Source: an uncultured virus (IMG/VR IMGVR_UViG_3300023227_000005) | Taxonomy: Duplodnaviria > Heunggongvirae > Uroviricota > Caudoviricetes | Strand: one strand, 5' to 3' | DNA length: 64,000 nt | Virus record (IMG/VR): IMGVR_UViG_3300023227_000005 | In this document: piece by piece, positions 28,259-49,112 of the stretch | How the letters are laid out: the number at the start of each line of letters is the position of its first letter | How positions within the stretch are numbered: the stretch's first letter is position 1 | Made by a program: the position numbers and the translations under genes | Notes under the pieces: model-generated | Seen by the model: only the letters and a program-made list of their open reading frames with translations | Told to the model about the DNA's origin: nothing | The model's database searches: none

Positions 28259-28596
28259 TAGTATGTCACCTTGTTGTTTTCTGATATTTTTTTACACATA
28301 CGGATAAACGCTCCTTGGTCTAGGGACATTTTCATGTTATTTACATACTTATGAACCCACTGAACGTTGCCCTCCTTTATGCCTGTTAGATAGCCACAAG
28401 AGATGTCTCCATAATCAACACTTTTTCTAGTACGACAGACGCATCTGCATTTAAGGTCTGATTTTTGGTATCTTCTTTCTGCCGTCTTACCACAAGCAGA
28501 ACAAAACACCTCGTATATCTGAAAACCATTGTGGGACTTTTTAACGAACTTTCCTACGGTCTTAGTCCCAAAGACTTCTCCTGTGTGACTCTTCAT
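28258..28596 (-). pseudogene. Internally deleted HNH homing endonuclease
   Basis: Retains GEVFG..TV..CSACG N-terminus and GNVQWVHKYVNNMKMSL C-terminus but lacks the central ..DRIDS..GY core seen in 48426..49112. Confidence 0.65.
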
Positions 28597-30362
28597 ACTG
28601 CTACCTTACCAAAGTCAATCTTGTCAAGGGGGTTGTATCCTACGAGTCCCACCTTGTCGTGGGTCCAGTTGAAGATATCAAACTCATTAGGGGCCATTAA
28701 GTTTTGAACATTAGGGTCCAATTCAATAGAGGGCAAGGGTTGCGGCTCTCTTTGGACTTGCTCAATAGCTCCATCTAGTTGATTTTCATAGATATGACAG
28801 TCAACAAATACGCCTGATAGATTGCCCACTTCCAACCCGGCATCTGCGGCCAATAGGCTTAAAAGTAAGCCATAAGAAGCGATGTTGAAGGGCACGCCTA
28901 ACATCAGATCTGCACTACGCTGAGCCCAGAAGAGATTGACCTTGTTATCGATGACTGTGACATTCCAAGCATAGTGACAGGGTGGTAGGGCCATCATGTG
29001 GATCTGATTGGGGTTCCATGCGGAACAGACCATTCGTCTGTCCATAGGGTTGGTGCGAAGAGTCTCAACGATGTTGGCTAGTTGATTAGTGCCAGTCTTA
29101 ATCTTTGGCCTAGTATCTAAGTTTTCTTTTCTATGGAAACACCATCCACCATGGGTCTTTGTTTTGCTCTTTATAGAAGCTTCTACTGTTTTGACATTTA
29201 GATTGTATTTTCTACAGAATCTAGCTAAGCCATACTCGTTAAAGAACGTATTGTTGTTTGGGTCTACAGCGTCAAAATAGTATTGTTGGCTAGTATGATT
29301 AGCGTTGTCTTCTCTAGTGGTCCATTGACACCCCCTAAGTCCATAAAAGCCTAGTCCATTAATGTCTTTGTCTAAGTGGTATCCAGACCAATTATCTAAT
29401 TTAAACTTCCATCCGTTTACTCTTTGAATGTCTCTTAAAAAGTTCTCGAATATTAGCCAGTTATTGTGAACATAGATTCCGTAAGCACCATAATTTTTAT
29501 AATCTTTGTTGCTTTTATCATAGCATCTTTGGATCATTTGTCTCCATTGGTTTTTTATCGCCTCTACCGTGGATTCCTTATCTTCTTCATAGTGAAGATC
29601 TGGAATCTCAACATCTTTATACTCTCCCATGCAAGCGACACCGCATACCGATGGATAATATGGATCGTAGATTTTCCCTTCTTGTACTTGTGATTTACAC
29701 AAATTATCTTTTACAAATCCACTAGTATGAAACTTTACTGAGAACCTACAATTGCAATGCCTGTCTTTGCCGTCGTATGATACTACTGTGTATATCCCAT
29801 TTGTCCCATTGAATTCTTTGCCAACTAGATCGAATGGACAATTTTCACTCAGTGAGACCTTAATTGTCTTATTTAGTCCTGTTGTTATTTGTGGAACTGG
29901 AGCATAGTCTCCATCAAAATTAATCCAATTCGCACCATATATGGGACCAAGGCAATTAAGTTCTTTTTGGGCGGCTTTCTTTCGAGAGTTGTATTCTGCA
30001 TTAGATTCTTCATGACTCATTGTGTCGTCGTGAGAGTATTCCTGCATATACTGGTGCCCCTCTACCGCCTCGGGGTTACACCATTCTGACCAAATCTTAC
30101 AGTTTCGGTCTTGAAACCACTGCTTGTCTGTGATCCCTTTGATAAATCCTTCAAGTTCGACTCTGATTGCTTTCCAAGCCATCTTTTTCGTCGTAAGTAA
30201 AGGAAACCCATCCCGCATTTCGTGAGAAAAGAAAACGTTAGGTACAGCTTTAGTCCTAATACCCCCATCTACTGGCTCCCATGTGTTACCGACTTTTCTG
30301 ACTGGAGACTTCCACTTGCCGTCTTCCAAAACCCTACTTACCATATCAATGTATTGTTTCAT
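28593..30362 (-). CDS. thyA: Thymidylate synthase with in-frame HNH endonuclease insertion
   Basis: GFPLLTTKK, LGPIYG, RRMVCSAWNP, ALPPCH, QRSADLMLGVPFNIASY, DCHIYENQ; ~270 extra aa. Confidence 0.95.
   Translation of the reverse strand: MKQYIDMVSRVLEDGKWKSPVRKVGNTWEPVDGGIRTKAVPNVFFSHEMRDGFPLLTTKKMAWKAIRVELEGFIKGITDKQWFQDRNCKIWSEWCNPEAVEGHQYMQEYSHDDTMSHEESNAEYNSRKKAAQKELNCLGPIYGANWINFDGDYAPVPQITTGLNKTIKVSLSENCPFDLVGKEFNGTNGIYTVVSYDGKDRHCNCRFSVKFHTSGFVKDNLCKSQVQEGKIYDPYYPSVCGVACMGEYKDVEIPDLHYEEDKESTVEAIKNQWRQMIQRCYDKSNKDYKNYGAYGIYVHNNWLIFENFLRDIQRVNGWKFKLDNWSGYHLDKDINGLGFYGLRGCQWTTREDNANHTSQQYYFDAVDPNNNTFFNEYGLARFCRKYNLNVKTVEASIKSKTKTHGGWCFHRKENLDTRPKIKTGTNQLANIVETLRTNPMDRRMVCSAWNPNQIHMMALPPCHYAWNVTVIDNKVNLFWAQRSADLMLGVPFNIASYGLLLSLLAADAGLEVGNLSGVFVDCHIYENQLDGAIEQVQREPQPLPSIELDPNVQNLMAPNEFDIFNWTHDKVGLVGYNPLDKIDFGKVAV
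29094..29903 (-). mobile_element. In-frame HNH endonuclease insertion within thyA (approximate boundaries)
   Basis: WRQMIQRCY..YKNYGAYGIYV..W..FENF..HLDKD..CQWTTREDNAN followed by NUMOD1/HTH-like LARFCRKYNLN..THGGWCF; more AT-rich than flanks. Confidence 0.85.
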
Positions 30363-37116: not shown

Positions 37117-39822
37117 TTAGATTCTCTTTTGTTCCCAATAGTTCCTCTTCTCTGCTATCTTGAGCATTTCCCGGTAAGCTAGATCAAAGTTAAAGGGTAT
37201 TCTTACCACCTTACCATCAAAACCTGCCGAACTCTCATTCTCATAAACCTTAGAGGTAGAAGAAGTCCTACTCTCATACATAAGGTCTCTAGTAAGACGA
37301 GACTCAAACTGAGTGTTAAGTCTGTCAGGCTCTCCTAGTGCATTTACAATCAACCACTGAGCCAATTGCTTGTGCGTAGTCTGCGGAGGAATCTCTGGTT
37401 TTGGTTTTGGTTGGTGAATTCTTGGTGCAGACTCCCAAGTTTTCTCTACTGGTTCAATCTCGAATGAATCGAATACCTTTGCAAGTATGTCTCCAGTCTG
37501 ATCCCACTGATAATGCTTCTTAAATCTGTCTAAAGTTATGTGCCCCAAAGCGATCCTGTCTTCTTTGTCGATATCGAAGAACCTACCGAAAACCATCGCG
37601 GTGTCTTCGTTATCTGGAACGGCCCTATAGCATCCTGTCTCTAGTTCTTTGTATAGAGCTTTGGGCTTCAAGGGCACTCCGGCTAGATTGCTAACAACAC
37701 TGCTCATAGCACTGTAGTCAACAGAAACAACGGGGATACCACAAGCAGCCGCCTCTACTTGTGGAAGGCCAAATCCCTCGCTGTTAGCATATTGAACATA
37801 TAAGTCAAAGCAATTCATCACTTCTGACAACTGTTCATAGCTAGCACCCTGCTTAACATTGCACATGGTGGCGTTGTATTTACCAGTGAAAGGCGATTCA
37901 CAGATAGCCCCCGCAAACAATGAAGCAAATGTCTTGTTGGTCTCTGGGCAAATGTAAGTAAAATAAACACTTGAAGAGACACAGTTCTGCTGTAGTAACT
38001 CTGGGATATCCCAACCTAGGTCTGGATAACTTGTGTGACAGTACAGCTTGTACTCATTAGGATTCTCTTGTTGCCCTAAGAACAGAGCCCACGCCTCAAA
38101 GAGATCTGGGTAAAGCTTGCGTCTTTGATTACGCATAACCGTGCCCACAATCTTTATATCCTTATCTAGCCCCAGGTTTTCTCTACAAACAGCTTGGTCC
38201 ATTGGCTTATACGCAGGATTAGCAGATGGAGGGGCTGTCCCAACATAGTTGATCTTCCCTCCAGACTGTTCCTTCATAACGTTGCCAGACCACTCAGAGT
38301 AAGACAGAACTGCGTCAGCACTCGCATAAGTACTAATCCACTGTCTAGCTTGTGGTGCTGAGTCTGCCGTTGGCATAATTACCCACTTGAACATCTTCCT
38401 AAAGGGAGATCGCTCTACAAACTCGCAATTATGAATACAAAAAGAAGATACATAGGTATTGTCTTCTTCTACTTCAAAGTTATGAACTTGTTCTCCATAG
38501 GATTGTTTAATAACCTCTTTAACAGTTAACCAAGCGTAGCCATTTTTAATTCTTGTCGCTTTAGCTATTTCTTTATTGAGGAGGTTGTCATAAATAGTCT
38601 TAAATCCCTCTAAGCTATTAGACCTAAAAGAGAATATGTATCTAAAATAATCTTTGTCGATTCCTTTGATATTATTTTTATTTAGATTGAAGGATGGCAA
38701 TATTCCAATCCTTAGGCACATCCTAAATACTTGGTGTGCTAATTGCTCACTCTTTGTGCAGTAAGAAGCTCTTTCCTTGTAATAACCTCCGTCACCCCTA
38801 AATAAGCCACACAAAAACGACCTTATACACTCGTTATTTGAGAAAAACACCTCATCAGAAAGCTTCTTGTCTCCAGCCAAAGAACCGCAAAACTTTAGAC
38901 AATCTTGTGATATTCTTTTGCCGTAACACCTTACTATTGCCGTATTCCCAAGTATCTTTATTTTAGCTTCTTTATCATAAAAAACCTTAACAAGAGAGAT
39001 AAAGTCATCAATATGACTAGACTCATTAGCATTAAAGGTTAACTGAATACCTTTGTATTTGTTGTCCTCTTTTAAGCCCTCGTACATTATGCAGCCTTCG
39101 GCCATATAGTAGCCTAAGAATCTACAAAAGTCATTCTTGTGATTTTTATCTCCCTCTTTGTCAATTGGGTAAACCAATATGTCGTTTTTCTCAATGCCTT
39201 GGGAGTCTACCCATTCTAAATTTTTAGGTGAAAACTTATGCACTGGTAGGCTTTTCTCTCCATTTCTTTTTAAGCAATAGACCGGATGATCGTCTGTTAG
39301 TTCTACATTAAATGGGCAATTTTGCACATTAATAGTGTGGAGATCTCCGAAATAACTCTTTTTAAATGTGTTTATTACTCTTCTATATCTTCCTTCGTGT
39401 GTTAAGACCAAGTCATCGACTTTTATGTCTTTGATCTTCTTGATGGAGTTTTTACATACGATATTAGTATTAGGAGTTAAGCACATCCAGAAGTCTCTGA
39501 TATCAAAGACAATGTCTGGCTTAAAGTCTAGGCAAACTTCTTCAAAGATGAACTCGCCAAATTGATTGAAGGGACTTGAGTCGTATGACTGCATCTCTTC
39601 TCTACTAGCTCTAGGTTGAAACTCCTTGTTTGGTTGTACTCCATAGTACCTCCAAGGCAAAGATAGCCCCCTAGGATCGTTTCTTTGACCATAGGCGGCT
39701 AATTCGGCTAGTTCGTATTTTCCTGTGGAGTTTAGATACTCCATGATTTCTCTAGTGTAGGTAGCATAACCAGTGTTTAGAAAGGTCGCCTCACTACAGA
39801 AGAGGATTCTTTTTTTTCTCAT
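37117..39822 (-). CDS. GT4 family glycosyltransferase containing a LAGLIDADG intein
   Basis: TGYATY, MRNQRRK, NSEGFGLPQVEAAACGIPVV. Confidence 0.9.
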   Translation of the reverse strand: MRKKRILFCSEATFLNTGYATYTREIMEYLNSTGKYELAELAAYGQRNDPRGLSLPWRYYGVQPNKEFQPRASREEMQSYDSSPFNQFGEFIFEEVCLDFKPDIVFDIRDFWMCLTPNTNIVCKNSIKKIKDIKVDDLVLTHEGRYRRVINTFKKSYFGDLHTINVQNCPFNVELTDDHPVYCLKRNGEKSLPVHKFSPKNLEWVDSQGIEKNDILVYPIDKEGDKNHKNDFCRFLGYYMAEGCIMYEGLKEDNKYKGIQLTFNANESSHIDDFISLVKVFYDKEAKIKILGNTAIVRCYGKRISQDCLKFCGSLAGDKKLSDEVFFSNNECIRSFLCGLFRGDGGYYKERASYCTKSEQLAHQVFRMCLRIGILPSFNLNKNNIKGIDKDYFRYIFSFRSNSLEGFKTIYDNLLNKEIAKATRIKNGYAWLTVKEVIKQSYGEQVHNFEVEEDNTYVSSFCIHNCEFVERSPFRKMFKWVIMPTADSAPQARQWISTYASADAVLSYSEWSGNVMKEQSGGKINYVGTAPPSANPAYKPMDQAVCRENLGLDKDIKIVGTVMRNQRRKLYPDLFEAWALFLGQQENPNEYKLYCHTSYPDLGWDIPELLQQNCVSSSVYFTYICPETNKTFASLFAGAICESPFTGKYNATMCNVKQGASYEQLSEVMNCFDLYVQYANSEGFGLPQVEAAACGIPVVSVDYSAMSSVVSNLAGVPLKPKALYKELETGCYRAVPDNEDTAMVFGRFFDIDKEDRIALGHITLDRFKKHYQWDQTGDILAKVFDSFEIEPVEKTWESAPRIHQPKPKPEIPPQTTHKQLAQWLIVNALGEPDRLNTQFESRLTRDLMYESRTSSTSKVYENESSAGFDGKVVRIPFNFDLAYREMLKIAEKRNYWEQKRI
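38428..39483 (-). mobile_element. Intein (352 aa) with LAGLIDADG endonuclease in glycosyltransferase
   Basis: Starts CLTPNT, block B LTDDHPV, FLGYYMAEG and FLCGLFRGDG, ends VHNFEVEEDNTY..IHN/C. Confidence 0.93.
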
Positions 39823-40562
39823 TGTTCTATTTTATTTCCTTTTTTGAAGTTATCAATAGCCCATAGGGGTTGTAGGTTTGTGTAATGCCATGCTATTTTT
39901 AGTTGATCTTCCATGCCATTAGAAGCAAAATCAAAGCTGCTTAATGGCCTTATATGATCTACATGCCATTCTCCATAATTTTCCCTAGTCATACCATCTT
40001 GGAATTTAGATTCTAAATAGTCCCAAAACTCTTCCGTTTTAAGCCCTATGTAGTCAAACGTTTTTAACTTCTTCTTTTGGCCCCTTAGTCCTCTTGTTAT
40101 ACTATTCCTCATATTCCTGTTCATTCTTTGTATTGGGTCGGCATTGCTTTTCCTACTCTGTGCTAAGCATTTTTCTGGATTGTTCTTTCTCCAGGTTCTA
40201 TTTCGCTCCCTCCTTGCTTCTGTGTTGTTTCTACAATACTCTTGTATCTTTTCTTGATTTTTGAGGTAGTATTCTCTTGCACTCCTTTTTCGCCTTTCTT
40301 CATACTTAGGATAACTTTCTTTCACCATTGCTTTATTACACTCTTTACAATAGCTAGGTTGACGTTTTCTATTACCTTGAGGATCTTTTTTATTTGTCTT
40401 GCACTTAGCACACAAAGTACTCACAGGTTTTCTAGGTCTTGGAGTATAGTACAAATCCCTAAGGCACCTTTTACATGTATTATTTTTGCCGCTTTTGTGA
40501 CGTTTGCTATTTCCAAAACGACTTTCATCAAGATATTCTTTGCATCTTCTACAGGTTTTCAT
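39819..40562 (-). CDS. Free-standing HNH/endonuclease VII-like homing endonuclease
   Basis: Two CxxC pairs, MTRENYGEWHVDHIRP...HYTNLQPLWAIDNFKKG; start at MKTC after GGAG RBS. Confidence 0.85.
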   Translation of the reverse strand: MKTCRRCKEYLDESRFGNSKRHKSGKNNTCKRCLRDLYYTPRPRKPVSTLCAKCKTNKKDPQGNRKRQPSYCKECNKAMVKESYPKYEERRKRSAREYYLKNQEKIQEYCRNNTEARRERNRTWRKNNPEKCLAQSRKSNADPIQRMNRNMRNSITRGLRGQKKKLKTFDYIGLKTEEFWDYLESKFQDGMTRENYGEWHVDHIRPLSSFDFASNGMEDQLKIAWHYTNLQPLWAIDNFKKGNKIEQ

Positions 40563-40578
40563 TTTTGCTCCCTTGTCT

Positions 40579-40607
40579 ATTATAGTCAGAAGGTTTGGAA
40601 AAGACAA
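40579..40607 (-). promoter_or_regulatory. sigma70-like promoter TTGTCT-17-TATAAT
   Basis: Intergenic, perfect -10, 17-nt spacer. Confidence 0.7.
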
Positions 40608-40608
40608 C

Positions 40609-42591
40609 CTAAATATCTGAAATTTTTTCAACGATCAGACTTCCGTCGCCCTTCTCTGAACTTCCGTAGATCATCACGTTGTTTCCTTCAAATAAGCTGT
40701 ACTTATTGTCTTCTCTCGCCTCTGGAAAGACCACAACGCTGTCAATTGAGCAGGTTTCGTCCTCAATGGTCAGGAAGGACATCTCTTTTCCCTTACTTGC
40801 CCCTTCTTTCTTAACCTTCGTGTTAAACACTCGGGTAATGTTTGCGGCGATTGTTAGCTTCTTGCCCTTTTTCCCGTCTGCTAGTTCCTTACAGGTTGTA
40901 TTGCCGCACATGTCTGTGGTTTCAATCTTAGACATAGAGACAGGGCAACCTAAGAACTTCACTTCCTGGTCAATGATCCACTCTGGATCGTCTTCTAGGT
41001 CGTAGGGTGGGTTCTGTAGCATCTTAATCTCGTTCAAGATAATCTGCTTTCTGGACTCTTTACTGGTCCCGCCGCCCTCTTTTTTTGTAGGTGCTAGATC
41101 TCTAAAGCAAGACTGCAAATCCTTCCATCTTCTCTTAGGGTAGTTTTCTATTACCCAGTTGGTCTCAGCCTTCGTCAAGATACGAAAGATCTCATAGTCA
41201 TATAAGACCTTGTTTCTCGTAACCTTGTCTTTGATTCCACGGAAGAACCCAATAGACCCAAGCGTCTTGAATACCGTAGAGTTCACCTTAGGAGAGAAGA
41301 ACAACAAGATCTCCATCCACGATGTGTTCTCAATCTTTTTATTTAGATGTACAAATAGATCTTCAACAGCAATGAAAGCCTTGTCCCCATTCTTTCCGGT
41401 CAAAGACTTAATGTCCTTAATGCCAAAGTAAATGGTGTCTCCAACGCAATTGAATTGACGTTTGAAGTTAGCAATACTAGGAGTTTTCAATTGAAGATCA
41501 AAAAGCTTAGCTTCTGACGCTAGTTCATAAACCTCTTGGTGAGCGTCCTGCTTGTCTTTTGCGTAACGAAAATAGGCTACAAAGAACTGTTTGATATAGT
41601 GTGCCTTGAAATAAGCACTCCAATATGAATCCAATCCATAGGCAACCGCGTGAGAATTACTGGTGGCTATTTTATTAGCATAAAAAAGATGGCTATCACT
41701 ATCAACCTCAATGTCCATAGTGGGCATTGTGCCCAAGCTTTTTATTCTAACTATTTTACTAGATTTCATGTCTACACAATCTTGAACAACTATCTCGTGA
41801 AAATATAACAGAATATCAGAAAGAGGTCTAATAACACCATCTTTGCACAAGAATTTATGCTCCATTGTGCATTTTATAGTTTTACCACACTCTAGCTCTA
41901 ACTCATAGACCTCTAGTGACCCGTGGTCATAAGTCTCTAAGACTTTTACGTATTGGTCAGACAATAAACAGGGAGATAGTACAAAATCTCCAGCTTTAAT
42001 TTCTGATAGCTGCTTTTCACCGTCTGGTGTTTGTACTACTGAATCCTTCGTAATAGACTTGTTAAAACTGTATCGAGCAGACTTCTCAATCCACCCGAAG
42101 ATTTCTTCTGCGTCTTTGGCTTCAACCGTCCCTACTTTCTCGCAACCAATGATAAAGTCTTCCTTGACCTTTGCCATCACGTCTGCTTTCTTTTTACCAA
42201 TGGCCTTTCTAAGAACATCAGCCTCTGACTCAGAGAAACCCGCAAGCTCTTTGGCTATAATCATAGCTTGTTCTTGATAGATCAAAACCCCGTAGGTTGG
42301 AGCTAAGAATGGCTCAAGAGAAGGATGTAGATACTCAACGGGTTCTAGTCCGTGCTTTCTGTCTACATAGTGCTGGGACATAGACTTGCCCTGATACATA
42401 GCTTTCAAAGAGCCAGGACGAAGAATAGAGATCAGAGCCGCAAGCTCTTCCATATTTTCTGGCTTGACTTTCTTGGACCACGATCTTCCAAGATTGCTTT
42501 CAAGTTGAAAAATACCCTTGGTTCTACCTTCCGCGAAAAGCTTCCAGACTTCTGGATCATTCATCGGAATATTATCAATGTCAACTGTCAT
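40609..42591 (-). CDS. dnaE: DNA polymerase III alpha, C-terminal piece (finger/HhH/OB) with mini-intein
   Basis: TKGIFQLES, ISILRPG, TYGVLIYQEQ, LRKAIGKK, YSFNK/SHAVAY, MSFLTIEDET..VVFP. Confidence 0.92.
   Translation of the reverse strand: MTVDIDNIPMNDPEVWKLFAEGRTKGIFQLESNLGRSWSKKVKPENMEELAALISILRPGSLKAMYQGKSMSQHYVDRKHGLEPVEYLHPSLEPFLAPTYGVLIYQEQAMIIAKELAGFSESEADVLRKAIGKKKADVMAKVKEDFIIGCEKVGTVEAKDAEEIFGWIEKSARYSFNKSITKDSVVQTPDGEKQLSEIKAGDFVLSPCLLSDQYVKVLETYDHGSLEVYELELECGKTIKCTMEHKFLCKDGVIRPLSDILLYFHEIVVQDCVDMKSSKIVRIKSLGTMPTMDIEVDSDSHLFYANKIATSNSHAVAYGLDSYWSAYFKAHYIKQFFVAYFRYAKDKQDAHQEVYELASEAKLFDLQLKTPSIANFKRQFNCVGDTIYFGIKDIKSLTGKNGDKAFIAVEDLFVHLNKKIENTSWMEILLFFSPKVNSTVFKTLGSIGFFRGIKDKVTRNKVLYDYEIFRILTKAETNWVIENYPKRRWKDLQSCFRDLAPTKKEGGGTSKESRKQIILNEIKMLQNPPYDLEDDPEWIIDQEVKFLGCPVSMSKIETTDMCGNTTCKELADGKKGKKLTIAANITRVFNTKVKKEGASKGKEMSFLTIEDETCSIDSVVVFPEAREDNKYSLFEGNNVMIYGSSEKGDGSLIVEKISDI
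41656..42057 (-). mobile_element. Mini-intein (134 aa), Ser1, ends TSN
   Basis: FNK/SITKDSVVQT, KCTMEHKF, MDIEVDSDSHLFYANKIATSN/SH. Confidence 0.9.
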
Positions 42592-42742
42592 ATTTTTCCC
42601 ACACAATCAAGCAGTAATCAATGTCCGTATTTGGGACATAGCCGTCATCCCACCAGTAGTCTAAGTTACAATCTGGACACTGGCCACCATTCCATGTTTT
42701 GTCCTCAAATTCACATTCACATCTTGGGCAAGTTATGTCCAT
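42581..42742 (-). CDS. Small zinc-ribbon protein (53 aa)
   Basis: Hand-read MDITCPRCECEF..QCPDCNL; AGGAG RBS. Confidence 0.6.
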   Translation of the reverse strand: MDITCPRCECEFEDKTWNGGQCPDCNLDYWWDDGYVPNTDIDYCLIVWEKYDS

Positions 42743-42751
42743 TCCAATCTC

Positions 42752-43447
42752 CTATTCTATGTATAGTCCACCATTAGCAAACGCCTTGTCAATCTTAGGG
42801 CTAAGTGTCTTATACATTGCCCTTCTAGTTTTAAGGAATTTAATAATGATGTTTGCCGTATCTTTTACGTCTTGAAGAGCGTCGTGAGCGTTCTCGCTTT
42901 CCATGCCCATTCGCTTTCTGACGTTGTCCATACTAATAGACTTGATGGTAGGGTCACTCTCGGTCCACAAGAACATGTCGTCCATCATGTCGTATTTCTT
43001 GATAGGATTAAAGAACTTGTTCTGGCCCTTCTTGTCATCCCAGCCTCCATATAACTTTGCCATTCTGTTAATAATTGGCATATCATAGTTGATAATGTTG
43101 TAGCCAGCAGGAATAGGAGCAAACCAAGTCGTACCCTTCCAGTTGTGCTTGTTTACGAAGGCTAAGAACTTAGTCCACACAGCCTTTGGCTTAGGTGCCT
43201 TGGCGATCTGTTCTCTAGTCTTTCCCGTGACCTTCAAAGCCTCTTCCTCAAGAGGTGCCAGCCCCGCCGCAATAGCCTTGTCGTCATCTGTTTCTGCCCA
43301 GATTTCACTGTTAAACTCGCCCCCCACTTTCTTCATTTCAAGAGTTCGTCCATGTAGGGCGATTGCAGCAAGCTGCGTTGGTTGACACGTATGTGGATCT
43401 CTGCCACCGGTTTCAAAGTCAAATACGATGAAGTCTCTATCTGCCAT
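42752..43447 (-). CDS. DEDDh 3'-5' exonuclease (Pol III epsilon-like)
   Basis: VFDFETGG, AGYNIINYD, AHDALQDV. Confidence 0.9.
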   Translation of the reverse strand: MADRDFIVFDFETGGRDPHTCQPTQLAAIALHGRTLEMKKVGGEFNSEIWAETDDDKAIAAGLAPLEEEALKVTGKTREQIAKAPKPKAVWTKFLAFVNKHNWKGTTWFAPIPAGYNIINYDMPIINRMAKLYGGWDDKKGQNKFFNPIKKYDMMDDMFLWTESDPTIKSISMDNVRKRMGMESENAHDALQDVKDTANIIIKFLKTRRAMYKTLSPKIDKAFANGGLYIE

Positions 43448-43595
43448 AATTGTTTATCTCCTTTTGTTTGTCCCATGTTTGGAGTATACTTAAAAATTTT
43501 CTACACTTTCTGTTCAATCTAAAGCCATTTGGGCTTTTATACATCAGATTGTACATCTTCCTCATTTCGTCCTGAGAATAAAACTCTATAATATC
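43437..43595 (-). pseudogene. 3' stump of a LAGLIDADG-like endonuclease gene
   Basis: Hand translation ..MRKMYNLMYKSPNGFRLNRKCRKF.., matches 50027 stump; contains AAGGAG RBS of the exonuclease. Confidence 0.55.
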
Positions 43596-43605
43596 TTAAA
43601 ACTGG

Positions 43606-44106
43606 TTAATAACAAGCTAATAAAGAATGGTTATCTGAAACAAATACGCAAAAATTATGCTTACCATCAACCATGCTAACTTTTTTAGACTCGTAATAGT
43701 CATACAAATAACCCTCGATTAAGCTATTGTCTGTAATTATGAACTTGGGAATCTCACCATAGTTGTCTAGCATAACCTTGTTGCAAAGTACCTTTAGAGC
43801 TTCCGTAAACACGCCGGGATCTCCATCTTGATCGTAAACAGTCATGTTTGCATTTCCAGCGTAAAATAACAAATTCTCTATATCTTTGTTCACTTTCGGA
43901 GAATTTCTCTCCCAATCTAGTTTGCTGCTCATGTGTTCTTCTCCTAGGGGTGTCTCGAAGAGGTCTACGTTCTCTTCTCTGAATTGTTTTAGTTTCTCTT
44001 TCTGTGCCGCCGCTTCTGGGTGATTTGGATGATCCCTGACAGCCTGCACTTCTTGTCTGTAGATCTGTCTCACAAACTCGTCTTTGTTACTGCTATTGAT
44101 TTCCAT
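43606..44106 (-). CDS. Hypothetical protein
   Basis: 166-aa ORF in operon. Confidence 0.6.
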   Translation of the reverse strand: MEINSSNKDEFVRQIYRQEVQAVRDHPNHPEAAAQKEKLKQFREENVDLFETPLGEEHMSSKLDWERNSPKVNKDIENLLFYAGNANMTVYDQDGDPGVFTEALKVLCNKVMLDNYGEIPKFIITDNSLIEGYLYDYYESKKVSMVDGKHNFCVFVSDNHSLLACY

Positions 44107-44305
44107 CTAGTTTCTCCAATTTTGCGTATCCAAATATCGCCCTATGTAATAGCTCAAGCGGCCATCCCCACCAGGGCACGTAAAACTCACAAGTAGAAAT
44201 CTCTCTGCATGGGTTCTTACCAGCGATTGGCTGACCTTCTCTTGTCCTAAGCCACCATCTGCATAGCCACCTTGGTCTAGAGTTTCCTAGTCTGCATTCG
44301 TTCAT
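44093..44305 (-). CDS. Hypothetical protein
   Basis: 70-aa ORF with GGAGG RBS. Confidence 0.55.
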   Translation of the reverse strand: MNECRLGNSRPRWLCRWWLRTREGQPIAGKNPCREISTCEFYVPWWGWPLELLHRAIFGYAKLEKLDGNQ

Positions 44306-44391
44306 CTTTGTCCTCCGATTTTCTTTCCGTCTTTGTCAATGACCACAACTTTGTCGCCTTCTTTGACTATCTTGGTTTCGTCTTGGCTCAT
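44302..44391 (-). CDS. Small hypothetical protein (29 aa)
   Basis: Hand-read MSQDETKIVKEGDKVVVIDKDGKKIGGQR*; GAGG RBS; ATGA overlap. Confidence 0.45.
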   Translation of the reverse strand: MSQDETKIVKEGDKVVVIDKDGKKIGGQR

Positions 44392-44393
44392 GT

Positions 44394-44633
44394 CTACCTC
44401 GTTTGTAAATATGGGTCGGTCTCTTTACACAGATCAAGAACACGTTCTTCCCAGCCCTTATAGTATCTACGGTTGGGTGTGCTATTCTCCATGATTTGTT
44501 TGATATCTTTCAAGGTAGAGTTTTGGAACTCGACCATAAGTCTGGCGATCTCTTCTGTGTCGTCTGACCACCCCTCCCCAAGCTCTTCGTCTTTCTTTCT
44601 TATTAGCTCAAGAGCTTGTTTCTTTGCATTCAT
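44394..44633 (-). CDS. Hypothetical protein
   Basis: ORF from MNAKK with GGAG RBS. Confidence 0.55.
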   Translation of the reverse strand: MNAKKQALELIRKKDEELGEGWSDDTEEIARLMVEFQNSTLKDIKQIMENSTPNRRYYKGWEERVLDLCKETDPYLQTR

Positions 44634-45486
44634 CTTTTTTTTCTCCAATTAGTTCTTGGATTTCCATAAGCTTATCAAGCAACATGAGACCCAAGATATC
44701 AAATTTAACGTGACCCAGTGCTTCTAGGTCGTTCATTTCTAGTCCTGCAATCATTTCGCCATTCTTTTCTGGCAACATAGGACAAACCTTGTCAAGAGGC
44801 TCCCTAGAGATAACCACACCAGCGGCGTGTTTACCTTGACTCTTGAATGTGCCCTCAAGTCTAATAGCCTGATCGAAGTATGGAGCATAGTCACCTTTTA
44901 AGTTTCCCTCTTCATCTAAGTGGCACCACTGACGCAAGCTTTCTGGGTCATTGATGAGGGTCCATCTGATAATAGAACGATCCTCTTCATCCATCAATTC
45001 AAGTTGGTCAGAGATAGCCGCTTCATCAGGGATTGGCTTAGTCATAGCGTTCATTTCATTGAAACCACAAGCTTTGTTCATACGCAAGACTTCCTTGAGA
45101 GAACTTCTACCTTGAAGTCGCCCATAGGTAATCATCTGGCTAACGTTCTCTGCTCCATACCTATACTTGAGATAGGCAATCACTTCATCACGCTTATCTC
45201 CTGGAACGTCGATATCAATATCGGGCAGGGATACGTGTCCACGACCATAATCTAAAGACTTATTAAAGTCAGGTCTATCGGCCTTGTCGTAAATCCACAA
45301 TACATAGCTATTATTTAGGTTTCCTTGACTATAAAATTCTCTATTTGAAATTAAAAATCTGTAGTATTCTACACATTGATCTATAGTAGAAATCAAATCA
45401 AGTTCATTTTGAAGATGAGGATTACGACGCACCTCCACAAGCTTGTCTTTGTTATGATTTATTCCAAAGTCTGTAATTTTTGCCAT
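44608..45486 (-). CDS. dnaE: DNA polymerase III alpha, catalytic palm/thumb piece
   Basis: HVSLPDIDIDVP, GKHAAGVVIS, KFDILGL; preceded by an atypical ~83-aa N-terminal segment. Confidence 0.92.
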   Translation of the reverse strand: MAKITDFGINHNKDKLVEVRRNPHLQNELDLISTIDQCVEYYRFLISNREFYSQGNLNNSYVLWIYDKADRPDFNKSLDYGRGHVSLPDIDIDVPGDKRDEVIAYLKYRYGAENVSQMITYGRLQGRSSLKEVLRMNKACGFNEMNAMTKPIPDEAAISDQLELMDEEDRSIIRWTLINDPESLRQWCHLDEEGNLKGDYAPYFDQAIRLEGTFKSQGKHAAGVVISREPLDKVCPMLPEKNGEMIAGLEMNDLEALGHVKFDILGLMLLDKLMEIQELIGEKKDECKETSS

Positions 45487-45693
45487 TTTGATTCCAATCT
45501 TATTTTTCCTGATAAATAATCTCTAACTTCTAGTATTTGAGGTAGAGATCCATATCTTAGTTCGTAAAGCTCTTGATTTTTCTTTTTGTTAAGGTTTCCC
45601 TCGTAAGGAAGCTCAAACCTTATTATTTCAATATTCTTTCTTAAATAAGAACAAACTCCAAAACATTGTCTAGGGTAAAACTTCTTATATTTT
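45459..45693 (-). pseudogene. 3' fragment of a LAGLIDADG-like endonuclease between dnaE pieces
   Basis: ..KKNQELYELRYGSLPQILEVRDYLSGKIRLESKWQKL; no good start; AT-rich. Confidence 0.5.
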
Positions 45694-45969
45694 TTATTCC
45701 ATTGTTTCCCTATGCATAAAATCTTCAAAAGTAAATTCCTGAAAAGATACATTATCAGGAGTGTTTCTCCCCGAATTATAGAATCTCTGAAACAGTAAGT
45801 CATACTCAATAGGGTCAATCTTTGTGATTCTAATAAGGTAAGAAATCAAACAACCAGCAGCAGAGTTATGCACAGCTAACCCTTCTACGTTGTAAGTGTG
45901 GGAGTTCTCGACGGTTAGATCGTTAACAAGTCCAGAGTATTTAATTTTTCTTTTCTTTTTTATTTGCAT
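45694..45969 (-). CDS. dnaE: Split intein C-half (35 aa) + DnaE extein piece
   Basis: MQIKKKRKIKYSGLVNDLTVENSHTYNVEGLAVHN/SAAGCLISYLIRITKIDPIEYDLLFQRFYN. Confidence 0.92.
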   Translation of the reverse strand: MQIKKKRKIKYSGLVNDLTVENSHTYNVEGLAVHNSAAGCLISYLIRITKIDPIEYDLLFQRFYNSGRNTPDNVSFQEFTFEDFMHRETME

Positions 45970-45980
45970 GGTGCCACTTT

Positions 45981-46115
45981 CTAGCTTTGAGGTAATTTGT
46001 CTTTAACTTCTACGATTGTTTTCTCATTTATAATAAAGTCTGGAAAATACATCCTAAAGACACCATTTTCGTCTTCATATTCAATTGGGTTGTTATAATA
46101 GAACCCCGACCTAGA
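45981..46115 (-). pseudogene. Remnant PD-(D/E)XK (TnsA-like) endonuclease between split-intein halves
   Basis: Hand translation IEYEDENGVFRMYFPDFIINEKTIVEVK, no start codon. Confidence 0.7.
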
Positions 46116-47297
46116 CTATATTTCTGTGATTTCGTCAAATTCTGTCAAGTCTTTTGCTGTAACCCAGCCTCTATTGCTCGTTAAGAACTTGTGATCTTCT
46201 GTACACCGAATAATTTTGCCGTTTTCCATGGTCATTTCAATTATTTCTTCATCCACTAGATAAGAAAGTGTATCTGCAACAATTTGCGAACCACCAAAAG
46301 CGTCTACAACGCTTTCTCCTTTCTTTATTATAGAGATTGGTTTCAATAAGCCGTTAGACATTCTCACCCTCGTGTCTGGCAAAAAGCACCCTCTTCCTGG
46401 TCCGCTGATCCAGCCCTTGCTTTTGATGAAGTTAATGATGTCCCATACAATCAAGAAATAACCAAACAGCTTCGCCCCCTTAATAACTCCAAACTCTTCG
46501 TTGAATTGGTCTAGGTATCTTTGCTTGGCTTCTTCTTTTTCTACTTTGCCCGTCTTCCCAAGTAATTCATTCCAGCCTTGTCGGCATAGCTGCTTTAGAT
46601 ACTCTTCCTCGGACTCTCCATTTGGAGTGGGGAAGGTTGGCAACATTGGCTTCTCAAGAATATCATACTCTGTACAAGAGTCTACAATACTGCAAATATC
46701 CTCACAAACAACTGCGTGATCCTTGTTAGGTACGCCAAAGCTATCTTCTGTGAAGAACTTGATATAGGGTTTTAGTTCGTCTTGAACTTTACCCTTACCA
46801 ATATACTTCATCATGTCGGGAAGGGGCACCTTCAACCCAGAGCATAAAGAAATTCTATGAATATCTACCTCTGACTTGTCCGTGTAGAAGTAATTCTTAA
46901 TCTTCCCGCCCTTCAAGTAATTATCGCCACCTGGGCACAGTGGCGTCTGTTGCTTACGTCCAACATAGATCAAGTTACCACGTTTGCAGTACTCTTTGAT
47001 GACAGTCATTTCATCTTGGTGCTGAATAGCCGACACAATTGCGATAAGGTCAAACCAGCCATCTTTGTTTTTAGAAAACAGACTAAACCCATCAAAAGAA
47101 CACCCAATGATTGGCTTTATACCAGCTTTCTTACACTCTTGAAAGAATCGGACAGTGCCCGAGATACTCTTGTAATCAGAAATACCACATGCGGTATATC
47201 CATTGTCTTTGCATTTCTTAACTAAGGCCTTGGGTTTTGAGAATCCTAGTTGTAAGCTGTAGTGCGTGTAGTTACACAGTGGTGCGAAATTTTCCAA
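46116..47297 (-). CDS. dnaE: DNA polymerase III alpha N-terminal piece (PHP) + split intein N-half
   Basis: NYTHYSL, GIKPIIG, YFLIVWDII, GPGRG/CFLPDTRV..RCTEDHKF..WVTAKDL; TTG start after GGAGG. Confidence 0.92.
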   Translation of the reverse strand: MENFAPLCNYTHYSLQLGFSKPKALVKKCKDNGYTACGISDYKSISGTVRFFQECKKAGIKPIIGCSFDGFSLFSKNKDGWFDLIAIVSAIQHQDEMTVIKEYCKRGNLIYVGRKQQTPLCPGGDNYLKGGKIKNYFYTDKSEVDIHRISLCSGLKVPLPDMMKYIGKGKVQDELKPYIKFFTEDSFGVPNKDHAVVCEDICSIVDSCTEYDILEKPMLPTFPTPNGESEEEYLKQLCRQGWNELLGKTGKVEKEEAKQRYLDQFNEEFGVIKGAKLFGYFLIVWDIINFIKSKGWISGPGRGCFLPDTRVRMSNGLLKPISIIKKGESVVDAFGGSQIVADTLSYLVDEEIIEMTMENGKIIRCTEDHKFLTSNRGWVTAKDLTEFDEITEI

Positions 47298-47325
47298 TTT
47301 TTCCTCCGGTTGGTTGTCCTATTCT

Positions 47326-47354
47326 ATAATAGTCGTCGGCGACGTAATCGACAA
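47326..47354 (-). promoter_or_regulatory. sigma70-like promoter TTGTCG-17-TATTAT
   Basis: Intergenic, upstream of dnaE N-piece. Confidence 0.65.
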
Positions 47355-47378
47355 CCGAAAACCATCAAAAATTTTTGA

Positions 47379-48422
47379 TTATCCTGGGCTTTCGTAGTAG
47401 TCCACTTTGAATCCAGGCTTTTTAAGCTTTTTAGTAGCAGCGTCTATGCCGTATGTCTTTATCGTGTCTTCTACGTGTTTACACTTCATCTTTCCCGTCT
47501 CTGGGTCTATTTTACTAAACTCGCAAACGTACTTACATTTCCAACTATTTCTAGCAGAAGATACTGGCCTAGGCTTTTTAGTATTGCTAATTTCTTCAAA
47601 CTTTTTTCTTAGATGTTCAAGAAACATTTCGTCATCTTCTTTTCCATACATCATAGAGAAAGGTCCGCCGTCTCTTAAAAAGAGTATAGTCATTACTCTA
47701 TTTTCTACTTCTGGATATAATCTGGATAACGCGTGGTTGTACAACAATAGCTGAGGGTCTTTTTGCAGCTTTGCGTAGTCTTTAACTTCTCCAGTAGCAA
47801 AGTCTTTTCTTTGGCCACTTTTGTAGTCTACAACCTCTATAGTGTTGGAGTCTGGCAGCATTACCGAATCTATCGTTCCCTTGATAGATAGTTGCATTTT
47901 TTTACCTTCATGCTCGAAGTGTGCCCAGTCCTTCTCTATGGGTAAATCAAAGTGCTTCTCAATCGCTAAAACATTACTAGTTCTTGGGTCATATTCTTTT
48001 TTCCAGTTTTTAAGTCCTACATACACAAGTTTCTCTACGAACTTGAAAGTATCTTTAATGGTCTCATCGTCAACCTTTTCAGAAAACTTTGGTTTATTGA
48101 AATCTAGTTCTGGATGAGAGGCCCCATAGTAGTCATAGCTTCTCCTAATAAGGTCATCTACAAATTTGTCTGTATGCAGCCCCTTTTTAGTAAACTTTAC
48201 CAATCCTATCGCGTCATCGATAAAAGATTGCTTATCTCCGTCTTGTAGTATTTTTTTACACTTACCTAATATCTCCATAACTCGATGCGTGCAGGTGCCA
48301 AGGACCGCCTTAAGACCACTTGCGTTTTGATACCCAAGTCCATATATTTGATAGTATTGCATCTCACAAAAACTATGACAACCTAAAGAACTGCTTCTAA
48401 AATAAGGAATTAGTATCCCCAT
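47379..48422 (-). CDS. PD-(D/E)XK (RecB/Cas4-like) exonuclease
   Basis: GTCTH, IEKHF, IKGTID, VVDYKSG, QLLLY, C-terminal Cys cluster. Confidence 0.85.
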   Translation of the reverse strand: MGILIPYFRSSSLGCHSFCEMQYYQIYGLGYQNASGLKAVLGTCTHRVMEILGKCKKILQDGDKQSFIDDAIGLVKFTKKGLHTDKFVDDLIRRSYDYYGASHPELDFNKPKFSEKVDDETIKDTFKFVEKLVYVGLKNWKKEYDPRTSNVLAIEKHFDLPIEKDWAHFEHEGKKMQLSIKGTIDSVMLPDSNTIEVVDYKSGQRKDFATGEVKDYAKLQKDPQLLLYNHALSRLYPEVENRVMTILFLRDGGPFSMMYGKEDDEMFLEHLRKKFEEISNTKKPRPVSSARNSWKCKYVCEFSKIDPETGKMKCKHVEDTIKTYGIDAATKKLKKPGFKVDYYESPG

Positions 48423-48425
48423 GTT

Positions 48426-49112
48426 TCACTCCTTGTGTTTAAGTATTAGCTCACACTGTTCATATAAGTATTCTAGTGTAAACTGGTTTTTCATTATGTT
48501 GATATCTTTGTGAACTAACCAAATGTTGTCTTTGGTGTACCCTTCTTCGCTGTCTATCCTATCCACAGAGACGGTTTGACAATTTTGCTTCTCTTTTGTT
48601 TTCTTAAAAGCTATTGGCGTCTTGGTCATCGCACACAAGCCTCCTTGCTCTTCATACTTGTCCCAAATGTCTTCAATCGTTATGTTAAAGTCTATATTTC
48701 TTCTTTTTGCTTGACATTTTACAGAATGAAAAAACCTACCAGGAATTGTGTGGTGAGATCTTTGCCTATTGTGGAAATCCTCTTGTTTTTGACTATAGGT
48801 TTTTTCTCTAATGGTGATTCCGTGTTTTTCTAGTGCTTTTCTAACTATAGACTTTCTTTTGAATCCTCCTAGCTCAGCCACCTCTTTCAATGTCATGTTT
48901 TTGTCTACATAGTATTCTTCTAAAAATTCTTTTGTGAAAGTTTTAGAGCTATCATACACGTGACCTCTGCTAATGCCATGACGACTCAACGCCTGAGACA
49001 CAGAGTTTGAAGACTTGATGCCAGTCTCTTTGGTTATGACTTGGATGCTTTTAAGTTGATTTACATAGTGTTCTTCAAGAAAATCTTTGGTTAACATGTC
49101 TTTTGGTCCCAT
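48426..49112 (-). CDS. Free-standing HNH homing endonuclease with two HTH repeats
   Basis: TKDFLEEHYV/TKEFLEEYYV repeats; AKRRNIDFNIT, QGGLCA, SVDRIDSEEGYTKDNIWLVHKDINIMK. Confidence 0.85.
   Translation of the reverse strand: MGPKDMLTKDFLEEHYVNQLKSIQVITKETGIKSSNSVSQALSRHGISRGHVYDSSKTFTKEFLEEYYVDKNMTLKEVAELGGFKRKSIVRKALEKHGITIREKTYSQKQEDFHNRQRSHHTIPGRFFHSVKCQAKRRNIDFNITIEDIWDKYEEQGGLCAMTKTPIAFKKTKEKQNCQTVSVDRIDSEEGYTKDNIWLVHKDINIMKNQFTLEYLYEQCELILKHKE

Follow-up and report, generated by a model that had tools for sequence, protein, structure and literature searches.

How does a phage replicate its genome when the only DNA polymerase detectable in it is distributed over four genes? The question is raised by a locus at 40609-47297 of a 64,000-nucleotide stretch (hereafter the window) of IMG/VR virus record IMGVR_UViG_3300023227_000005, an uncultured member of the Caudoviricetes. 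A first-pass annotation had recognized there the ordered motifs of the replicative polymerase DnaE (Pol III alpha) in four open reading frames (ORFs), here called pieces 1 to 4, and had supposed that one trans-splicing, one cis-splicing and three chains make up the enzyme. We consider it probable that the four co-oriented genes give rise to three mature chains of the phage's replicative C-family polymerase, through predicted splicing and assembly and with predicted activity, and that the breaks between them differ in history. Break 1/2 would be a split intein, break 2/3 an endonuclease cassette and break 3/4 an old split, and piece 4 appears to contain a mini-intein in addition.

Comparison of the four minus-strand ORFs with polymerase profiles shows that they are consecutive segments of Pol III alpha, in the correct order (Table 1). 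The DNA_pol3_alpha profile (PF07733) runs on from piece to piece, piece 1 matching its positions 1-65, piece 2 its positions 66-101 and piece 3 its positions 98-260, and the 1190 positions of PHROG 405 are covered by pieces 1 to 4 in order at 294-406, 407-440, 440-618 and 617-1053. This colinearity, together with the coordinates, bears out the annotated order of the motifs. The GPGRG, PDIDID and KFD residues are invariant (G299, P300, R302 and G303 of piece 1, across 16 sequences; D89, D91, D93 and D263 of piece 3), and none of the pieces contains a stop or a frameshift. Piece 2 is colinear with the uninterrupted ORF of the relative L005 through codon 75. The palm model of piece 3 resembles solved Pol III alpha palms (5LEW, Z 12.2; 4IQJ, Z 11.6), its residues 88-288 aligning to residues 401-580 of E. 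coli alpha. The canonical succession of PHP domain, GPGRGSAAG palm, catalytic Asp residues and fingers identifies the product, as judged from its sequence, as a C-family replicative polymerase (DnaE/Pol III alpha). Read-through or an alternative genetic code was rejected as the source of the breaks, since three-frame translation showed that the frames differ and that several stops intervene. Against cultured phages, blastn gave no DNA match, and tblastn of piece 4 gave matches that were all below 60% identity among 1297 records. The 25 matches listed had 25.5-35.7% identity and came from Rhodococcus and Streptomyces phages and one record named 'Bacteriophage sp.'.

The window is part of a 175,823-bp record rated 100% complete by CheckV. 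No PF07733 match beyond these pieces, and no family A or family B polymerase, was found in that record, so that the four-gene polymerase is, by these profile searches, the phage's own and its only detectable DNA polymerase. The locus lies within a replication module encoding a primase, a DnaB-like helicase, a UvsX-like recombinase, ribonucleotide reductase, a deoxynucleoside monophosphate kinase and a PD-(D/E)xK exonuclease.

Breaks of this kind could be artefacts of assembly or sequencing, and contigs from independent sequencing runs bear on this directly. At least part of the stretch is contained in 22 runs labelled as salt-lake or lake-water metagenomes, and 12 of these contain at least half of the sampled words; no RNA run was listed among them. 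Contigs were compared for four runs (X6, X7, X9, X12) that carry no flag as the possible source. X7 and X9 each yielded a 697-nt contig identical to 45178-45874, which covers the entire cassette at break 2/3 and both of its junctions. Contigs of X6 matched 44300-45307, 45316-45655, 45627-45791 and 45797-46278 with 0 differences, the last covering the intein spacer of break 1/2. Errors of assembly are thereby rejected as the cause of the breaks. Breaks 1/2 and 3/4 and the mini-intein also occur in three further IMG/VR contigs, and the exact piece 3 protein is on record from two contigs. With no point found in its favor, the artefact explanation has a negligible probability. Both circumstances under which the first-pass annotation would have fallen, a faulty assembly or an intact dnaE elsewhere beside decaying pieces, were looked for: the breaks recur in contigs of other runs, the genome holds no second dnaE, and the pieces are intact. 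In X12, a 9361-nt contig bridges 45237 to 45796 via 42 other letters, which is the uninterrupted (empty-site) allele, and in X7 and X9 some contigs show, in the piece 3 flank, the variant letters of the relatives. The two alleles of break 2/3 thus occur within one sample set, as seen in contigs (abundance being outside their scope).

The nature of break 2/3 emerges from its relatives. In L004-L006, which have 94-99% DNA identity to the window, pieces 2 and 3 form a single ORF of 281 amino acids (aa; ...RFYNAGRNTEDHVSLPDIDIDV...). Compared with them, the window is longer by a net 516 bp, the additional DNA lying between 45744 and 45238 and the codons for (N/H)-V-S being present on both sides. 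L008 and L017 have a free-standing gene precisely between the tail of the upstream half and a head-bearing piece 3, and this gene encodes a LAGLIDADG endonuclease (PF14528, 27.8 and 35.4 bits against a cut-off of 22.5; phrog_4645, E 3e-25 and 1e-26). L009-L014 lack the cassette and are 94-98% identical to the piece 3 protein of L008 (P0089) from residue 86 on. Judged by these alignments, break 2/3 is ascribed to an endonuclease gene that separates two colinear halves of the polymerase gene, for which L004-L006 and L009-L014 have uninterrupted alleles. The remnant in the window starts after the second LAGLIDADG motif and represents the C-terminal third, and the enzyme is therefore dead there.

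The cassette is bordered by a burst of sequence divergence from L004-L006. Upstream, 0 differences in 46006-45857 are followed by 3, 4, 12 and 11 per 30 nt toward the junction, mostly synonymous, i.e. 30 differences in about 110 bp after none in 150 bp; about 350 bp downstream are also elevated, over a background of 0.6-1.75%. Such a burst is the pattern that co-conversion at a recombination event would leave.

No copy of the cassette occurs elsewhere in the genome. A first search of viral contigs for close relatives with a head peptide confirmed none, and an alignment-based search directed at the head then gave 18 loci, three of which repeat the contigs of L008, L017 and L027. The endonuclease gene is present at 12 of the 18; at the other 6 it is absent and the polymerase gene is still split. 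L103-L110 are 98-100% identical and were therefore counted as one lineage. There are 12 cassette lineages including the window, 5 with and 7 without an intact endonuclease gene. One and the same site thus occurs empty, with a live endonuclease gene, with a dead gene, with no gene, and as an in-frame fusion in which the tail runs into the head (P0019, P0136 and P0154), in P0019 behind an intein C-terminal half (IntC). The first-pass annotation had proposed comparing related loci, and the comparison leads beyond it at two of the breaks: break 2/3 is absent from the closest relatives, and break 3/4 is clade-wide.

The head is a conserved part of the protein. At least 20 of 119 other clusters of piece 3 homologs, among the matches listed, cover at least 90% of piece 3 with the head included, and E28, Y41, Y42, N56, N59, S60 and W64 are invariant in 20 aligned sequences. 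Identity at codon positions 1/2/3 in four cassette loci is 0.54/0.64/0.37 for the head and 0.65/0.77/0.37 for the palm; the relaxed third position indicates that the head is conserved as protein, not as RNA. With a profile of the head alone, 37 proteins were retrieved at E <= 0.001 from 1.84 billion representatives. Proteins of about 280-300 aa or 530-1170 aa carry the head at their N-terminus; in P0136 and P0154 it lies inside the chain, near residue 406. No Pfam or PHROG family corresponds to it. All recovered tails follow the pattern [VI]-[SN]-F-x-E-[hydrophobic or E]... and reach a stop after no more than about 15 codons. AlphaFold2 predicts five helices for the head, with a predicted local distance difference test score (pLDDT) of 71-92 for this block within piece 3; modelled alone, the head has a mean pLDDT of 80.5 and a predicted template-modelling score of 0.69.

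We considered whether pieces 2 and 3 are reunited, either by covalent linkage or in the RNA, through a group I intron, an atypical split intein with the tail as a short N-terminal half (IntN) and the head as a long IntC, or translational bypassing. LAGLIDADG genes are common in group I introns and inteins, the order of tail, endonuclease and head resembles that of an intein, and atypical split inteins with an IntN of about 16-25 aa are known. A group I intron was rejected, because Rfam gave no match at E <= 1 over 40000-48000 (weak alone, as phage introns can be missed) and because the 3' half of the insert shows the conservation of a protein, evolving in the palm frame with the codon pattern given above; piece 3-type homologs also open with Met at about the same place. 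An intein made of tail and head was rejected in turn: the head is helical rather than a HINT fold, the residue ahead of SLPDID is variable and never a conserved Asn, and the first tail residue is Asn, not Ser, in L027. The gap to be crossed, 207 nt in the window and about 1 kb in L008, is far longer than known translational bypass. Rejoining by any of these routes is therefore very improbable.

If the halves stay separate, they should dock. A complex was predicted from residues 1-303 of piece 1, residues 36-91 of piece 2, and piece 3, with a separate alignment for every chain; such a multimer prediction had been suggested in the first-pass annotation. Piece 3 was placed on pieces 1 and 2 with interface scores (ipSAE) of 0.84, 0.84 and 0.85, the best of three controls reaching 0.01. 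The ipSAE mark applied separates solved complexes (116 of 157 reach it) from mismatched pairs (2 of 215), a calibration that is rough for chains with their own alignments. The runs agree in at least 92% of contacts, with a partner pLDDT of at least 86. The predicted interface includes tail residues 76-88 and head residues 31-63, which are without a solved counterpart.

We propose the following assembly. The split intein would ligate piece 1 (PHP to GPGRG) to piece 2 (SAAG to NVS), giving chain A; piece 3, with head, catalytic palm and thumb, would be chain B; and piece 4, from the fingers to the OB fold, would be chain C after excision of the mini-intein. Assembly of the three chains would be non-covalent and would probably include the DnaQ-like exonuclease, whose gene lies between pieces 3 and 4. 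One trans-splicing, one cis-splicing and three chains, as supposed at the outset, fit the splicing motifs, which are Cys1/TxxH/VHN/S for the split intein and Ser1/TxxH/SN/S for the mini-intein (the last slash in each marking the junction). The cassette at break 2/3 appears to be built around a free-standing LAGLIDADG gene whose target would be the conserved catalytic-strand sequence. It would supply a stop and a new start, a conserved tail upstream and a conserved helical head downstream, tail and head presumably helping the halves to dock. In the window the endonuclease gene has decayed and the split has been kept.

Several observations weigh against this reconstruction. The score of the complex model may be largely memory, because DnaE has been solved as a single chain, and it attests to likeness, not binding. 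Ribosome-binding sequences are weak ahead of pieces 2, 3 and 4. The OB fold of piece 4 (PF01336) scores E 3.8e-4 and 20.8 bits, below the 27-bit Pfam cut-off, and the residue ahead of the terminal Asn of the mini-intein is Ser, not His. With a dead endonuclease, the cassette in its present form cannot have moved by its own enzyme; the window may have gained the cassette, or its relatives may have lost it and regained an uninterrupted allele. The presence/absence pair L008 and L009 shows no clear flank-divergence signal above a 4-7% background. Finally, L100 (4950-7412) encodes head, palm, fingers and OB fold in a single 820-aa ORF that follows an intact LAGLIDADG gene; this is a lineage without the palm/fingers split, in which the exonuclease gene is about 2 kb further on. 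The long head-bearing proteins suggest that more unsplit forms like that of L100 exist.

The weak start signals of pieces 2 and 3 would also be expected if the cassette had inactivated the polymerase, pieces 2 and 3 were decaying, and the phage survived on host Pol III or on co-infecting relatives with the intact allele. An empty-site allele is indeed found in contigs of the same sample set, and the endonuclease gene has already decayed. Decay of the polymerase itself would not account for the recurrence of the split form, with conserved tail and head, in 12 lineages, the 7 without an intact endonuclease keeping both halves open. Nor does it fit the coding-type conservation of the head, the absence of frameshifts and stops from every piece, the invariance of the catalytic residues, the lack of another polymerase in the genome, or the passing complex model. 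We regard inactivation as unlikely.

Where did the tail and the head come from? By eye, the tail mirrors the strand S-L-P-D-I-D-x-D by position, with the catalytic aspartates replaced. A VIA-align search with the head alone returned 12 of 48,161 chains at Z >= 2, and 7 of the best 8 were C-family polymerases (9QPC, 4.4; 5LEW, 4.3; 5M1S, 3.6; 7PU7, 3.5; 5FKU, 3.4; 3F2B, 2.8; 2HPI, 2.4), each aligning 80-83 of the head's 86 residues. In 5 of these 7, the alignment covers the stretch immediately preceding the catalytic strand (E. coli 290-398, Mycobacterium tuberculosis 319-417, PolC 827-971); in 5FKU and 2HPI the alignments start there (290 and 308), the listed range extending much further. This is the region that had been predicted beforehand from a by-eye resemblance. 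These structural alignments point to piece 3 being colinear with residues about 290-580 of alpha, and they make it on balance likely, if by no great measure, that the head is a degenerate duplicate of the N-palm segment, the segment with GPGRGSAAG that pieces 1 and 2 already provide in working form. The tail would correspond to the catalytic strand in the same way, as a degenerate duplicate of it, which suggests that the cassette arose with an overlapping duplication of its target.

Alternatively, the head could be an unrelated adaptor or regulatory domain acquired by the cassette. Foldseek gave 0 matches to the head at E <= 0.001. The head profile retrieved no DnaE among PDB sequences, and none of its 37 matches among the 1.84 billion representatives lies on a canonical DnaE N-palm. 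Alignment by hhalign to the region chosen beforehand is marginal (17 columns, P 0.033, a score reached by 5 of 200 shuffles; the global mode was useless), and against the whole fused DnaE it gave a probability of 0.5% and E 0.11. The VIA-align scores of 4.4 or less lie in a range where, as the tool warns, a common arrangement can be the cause. ESM Atlas matches scored 0.89-0.92 with few shared features and serve as leads only. An unrelated origin sits poorly with the outcome of the unbiased structure search, in which C-family polymerases took 7 of the best 8 places at the region named in advance, and with the position-by-position mirroring of the catalytic strand by the tail. It is somewhat doubtful, though a serious possibility, and concerns the origin of the head only.

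Homing endonucleases are thought to be safe in essential genes only when sheltered by a self-splicing intron or intein. We tentatively suggest, falling short of an even chance, that the unit of tail, LAGLIDADG gene and head is a third vehicle, in which degenerate copies of the target's flanking structure would act as a docking module and let the halves reassemble non-covalently. Such a unit would move between phage dnaE genes as a whole and outlive its endonuclease.

Break 3/4 falls in the linker after KFDILGL, and no intein motifs or duplicated segments were found at it. A census was made of 66 loci of the clade, with palms at least 45% identical and duplicate contigs removed. The exonuclease gene lies between palm and fingers in 48 of the 66, 11 end after the palm and then the exonuclease gene, and 7 end too early; palm and fingers are contiguous in none of the 66, compared with 18 of 21 distant relatives in which they are contiguous in one frame. 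From this distribution, break 3/4 is apparently an old split fixed in the clade. Small ORFs and a DnaQ-like exonuclease gene sit between pieces 3 and 4. Their presence had been noted in the first-pass annotation, which named a DEDDh exonuclease beside unrelated small genes; the exonuclease is probably the proofreading partner of the polymerase rather than an unrelated gene.

The insert in piece 4 was predicted to be a contiguous cis-splicing mini-intein, the assignment resting on its junctions FNK/SITKDS and KIATSN/SHAVAY, its Ser1, TxxH, terminal Asn and +1 Ser, and the end-to-end alignment of its residues 6-134 to residues 9-128 of the gp41-1 intein. At the same FNK/S site, L022 has an IntN, a 305-aa DUF559/NUMOD3 endonuclease gene and an IntC as three ORFs, and the mini-intein may be the contiguous relative of this split intein. 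The piece 4 homologs of L009 (9361-11721) and L026 contain a further intein at another fingers site, IIRPG/C...HN/C, with an HNH-like region in L009. Counting the window's three, mobile elements have four or more insertion sites in the dnaE of this clade.

Break 1/2 bears the hallmarks of a canonical split intein, namely Cys1, TxxH, ...VHN/S and halves divided at the canonical endonuclease insertion point, and trans-splicing is predicted accordingly from these motifs. Searched against PDB sequences, the IntN matched the NrdJ-1 intein at E 1.6e-6 and, at about 1e-3, the DnaE inteins of Ssp and Npu; its Intein_splicing and Hint matches are below the Pfam cut-offs. Motifs and PDB sequence matches together confirm the annotated placing of an IntN at the end of piece 1, an IntC at the start of piece 2 and a mini-intein within piece 4. 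In the first census, the split intein was found in 4 of the 66 clade loci, the window and L004-L006, and a similar IntC heads protein P0019. The spacer between the halves is about 89-95 bp shorter in the window than in L004-L006. The 68-aa spacer ORF of L005 has weak family matches (DUF7487, 3.6e-5, below cut-off; phrog_15137 'endonuclease', 2.7e-4; PDDEXK_3, 0.075), and neither it nor the remnant in the window has significant similarity to the L022 endonuclease. The split intein may once have been associated with an endonuclease gene of which a remnant persists.

How do these breaks compare with known systems? Wu, Hu and Liu reportedly described in 1998 a cyanobacterial split DnaE with a trans-splicing intein. 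Like it, the present Pol III alpha would be made from two genes by protein trans-splicing; the halves at break 1/2 are 146 bp apart, in a phage, and form one of four interruptions, unlike the cyanobacterial halves, which are described as lying at separate loci with another integration point (PMC2677866). The nearest precedent for break 1/2, as far as the passages concerned go, is the fractured gene, a split intein with a free-standing homing endonuclease gene, reported for three metagenomic DnaE loci at three sites (Dassa et al. 2009, PMC2677866). As there, the halves are adjacent, co-oriented and split at the canonical intein point, and in L005 an endonuclease-like ORF lies between them and overlaps the start of the IntC gene. 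L022 shows the full layout at FNK/S, with a DUF559/NUMOD3 endonuclease of the kind called 'Vsr-like' in that paper, and the mini-intein of the window and the split form of L022 appear to make up the contiguous-versus-fractured pair that its model predicts. The window differs in that its endonuclease is a remnant with weak family matches only, and its IntN and IntC differ from the DnaE-1, -2 and -3 sequences listed there.

Genes in pieces that lack inteins are also known. Free-standing homing endonucleases interrupt nrdA of phage Aeh1 (mobE), the T4 topoisomerase (mobA) and gene 43 of phage 25 (seg), according to the relevant passages of Edgell et al. 2010 (PMC2988022), and an SbcD-like locus has an intein-less split bordered by short extra regions of 25 and 9 aa (Dassa et al. 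2009, PMC2677866). Break 2/3 resembles the mobE, mobA and seg cases in having an endonuclease inside an essential replication gene, two polypeptides to reassemble, and uninterrupted alleles in related phages. Unlike these, its endonuclease is of the LAGLIDADG family, not HNH, GIY-YIG or Vsr-like, its host is a C-family polymerase, and the cassette carries an 83-aa conserved head and a tail, which recur in 12 lineages, persist after endonuclease loss and are sometimes fused in frame. The examined passages of PMC2677866 and PMC2988022 do not mention an adaptor module comparable to the head and tail.

Division of a Pol III alpha has been reported for group 2.2 jumbo phages, in which, in the part of the text concerned, a minimal form is encoded in two distant genes (Iyer et al. 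2021, PMC7824862). In both cases a C-family catalytic module is divided among proteins presumed to reconstitute the enzyme. The jumbo-phage form is described as minimal, without PHP or other domains, and accompanies a family B polymerase, its genes lying far apart. The window enzyme, unlike it, is full length from PHP to OB fold and the genome's only polymerase, and its palm and fingers are split with an exonuclease gene in the gap.

Fractured DnaE, genes split by HNH, GIY-YIG or Vsr-like endonucleases, and a split jumbo-phage Pol III alpha are thus already in print, as far as these sources show. No description of a dnaE gene with a free-standing LAGLIDADG cassette, or of a conserved module of tail and head, was found in the literature covered, which excludes most subscription journals. 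What appears to be new is that one enzyme combines a split intein and a mini-intein with an old fission and an adaptor-bearing endonuclease cassette, the tail/head module being the novel element. The locus and its relatives form a natural series at one enzyme site, with a conserved, foldable adaptor on both sides of the break throughout, and illustrate how far a replicative polymerase may fragment and yet stay the sole polymerase of a phage. The new split intein, the mini-intein and the possible non-covalent docking pair are candidates for protein engineering, and the adaptor module is the part most worth experiment.

Table 1. Features of the polymerase locus, in order of transcription (window coordinates; E, expectation value)
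Feature	Position	Strand	Details
Piece 1	46116-47297	-	393 aa
Piece 1 N-extein: PHP domain and first palm part to GPGRG	46389..47297	-	aa 1-303; PF02811 E 1.4e-14; PF07733 positions 1-65 E 2.5e-11
IntN of predicted split intein	46119..46388	-	90 aa; starts CFLPDTRV; block B TEDHKF; stop 46116-46118
IntN/IntC spacer with decayed endonuclease-like remnant	45970..46115	-	146 bp; alignment to L005; tblastn of the L005 68-aa ORF gives two fragments here
Piece 2	45694-45969	-	91 aa
IntC of predicted split intein	45865..45969	-	35 aa; ends ...GLAVHN; +1 residue is Ser of SAAG; read from translation; phrog_21652 positions 5-69
Piece 2 extein, SAAGCLISYL...RFYNSGRNTPDNVS	45745..45864	-	aa 36-75; PF07733 positions 66-101 E 7.1e-11
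Cassette at break 2/3	45238..45744	-	507 bp; absent from L004-L006; codon-by-codon comparison; tail, LAGLIDADG remnant and head
Tail, FQEFTFEDFMHRETME	45697-45744	-	16 aa, on the end of piece 2; stop 45694-45696
LAGLIDADG endonuclease remnant, dead	45483-45698	-, other frame	51% identical to aa 154-229 of the intact 230-aa L017 enzyme
Piece 3	44608-45486	-	292 aa; stop 44608-44610
Head, helical N-terminal module of piece 3	45238..45486	-	83 aa; conserved; five helices (AlphaFold2)
Piece 3 palm and thumb, HVSLPDIDIDV...KFDILGL	44611..45237	-	aa 84-292; PF07733 positions 98-260 E 1.5e-32
DnaQ-like 3'-5' exonuclease gene	42752-43447	-	PF00929 RNase_T E 1.1e-11; phrog_192 'DNA polymerase exonuclease subunit' E 4.1e-27
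Piece 4	40609-42591	-	probable ATG at 42591 (by comparison with L008, L017); frame open to TTG at 42606
Piece 4 N-extein: fingers, ...GIFQLES...ARYSFNK	42058..42591	-	PF17657 DNA_pol3_finger positions 17-164 E 5.5e-50
Predicted mini-intein, SITKDSVV...TMEHKF...KIATSN	41656..42057	-	134 aa; +1 Ser of SHAVAY; gp41-1 intein 6QAZ E 1.1e-13
Piece 4 C-extein: remaining fingers to C-terminal OB fold	40612..41655	-	phrog_405 match reaches position 1053; stop 40609-40611

The surroundings of the locus contain further candidate mobile elements. A 901-aa glycosyltransferase (37117-39822, minus strand; Glycos_transf_1, E 5.5e-11), whose ORF is also present in L005, has an internal LAGLIDADG_3 match at aa 331-381, and the insert, bounded by DFWMC/LTPNT and FCIHN/CEFV, looks like an endonuclease-bearing intein. 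A 589-aa thymidylate synthase (28593-30362, minus strand; phrog_160, E 1e-81, in two stretches) contains, at about aa 205-422, a region of HNH endonuclease type (phrog_2081, E 9e-43), which may be an intein or a fused endonuclease. Endonuclease VII/HNH-like genes flank the polymerase locus at 39819-40631 and 48426-49112 (both minus strand; phrog_1035, E 3.5e-16, and phrog_3322, E 6.6e-26), one of them overlapping the stop of piece 4.

A second difference from L004-L006 lies at 43466-44387, which is 922 bp here and 176 bp there, and includes a 166-aa ORF (43606-44106) and a 70-aa ORF without a Pfam or PHROG family. Three giant plus-strand ORFs (2111-13060, 15970-20829 and 20836-24486; 3649, 1619 and 1216 aa) gave no PHROG family at E <= 1e-5. 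Promoter and terminator scans were uninformative (28 against 21.6 ± 5.7, and 12 against 6.5 ± 2.8). A perfect sigma-70 consensus, TTGACA, 18 nt, TATAAT (12/12), is present at 49182-49153 on the minus strand, upstream of the HNH gene and the polymerase block.

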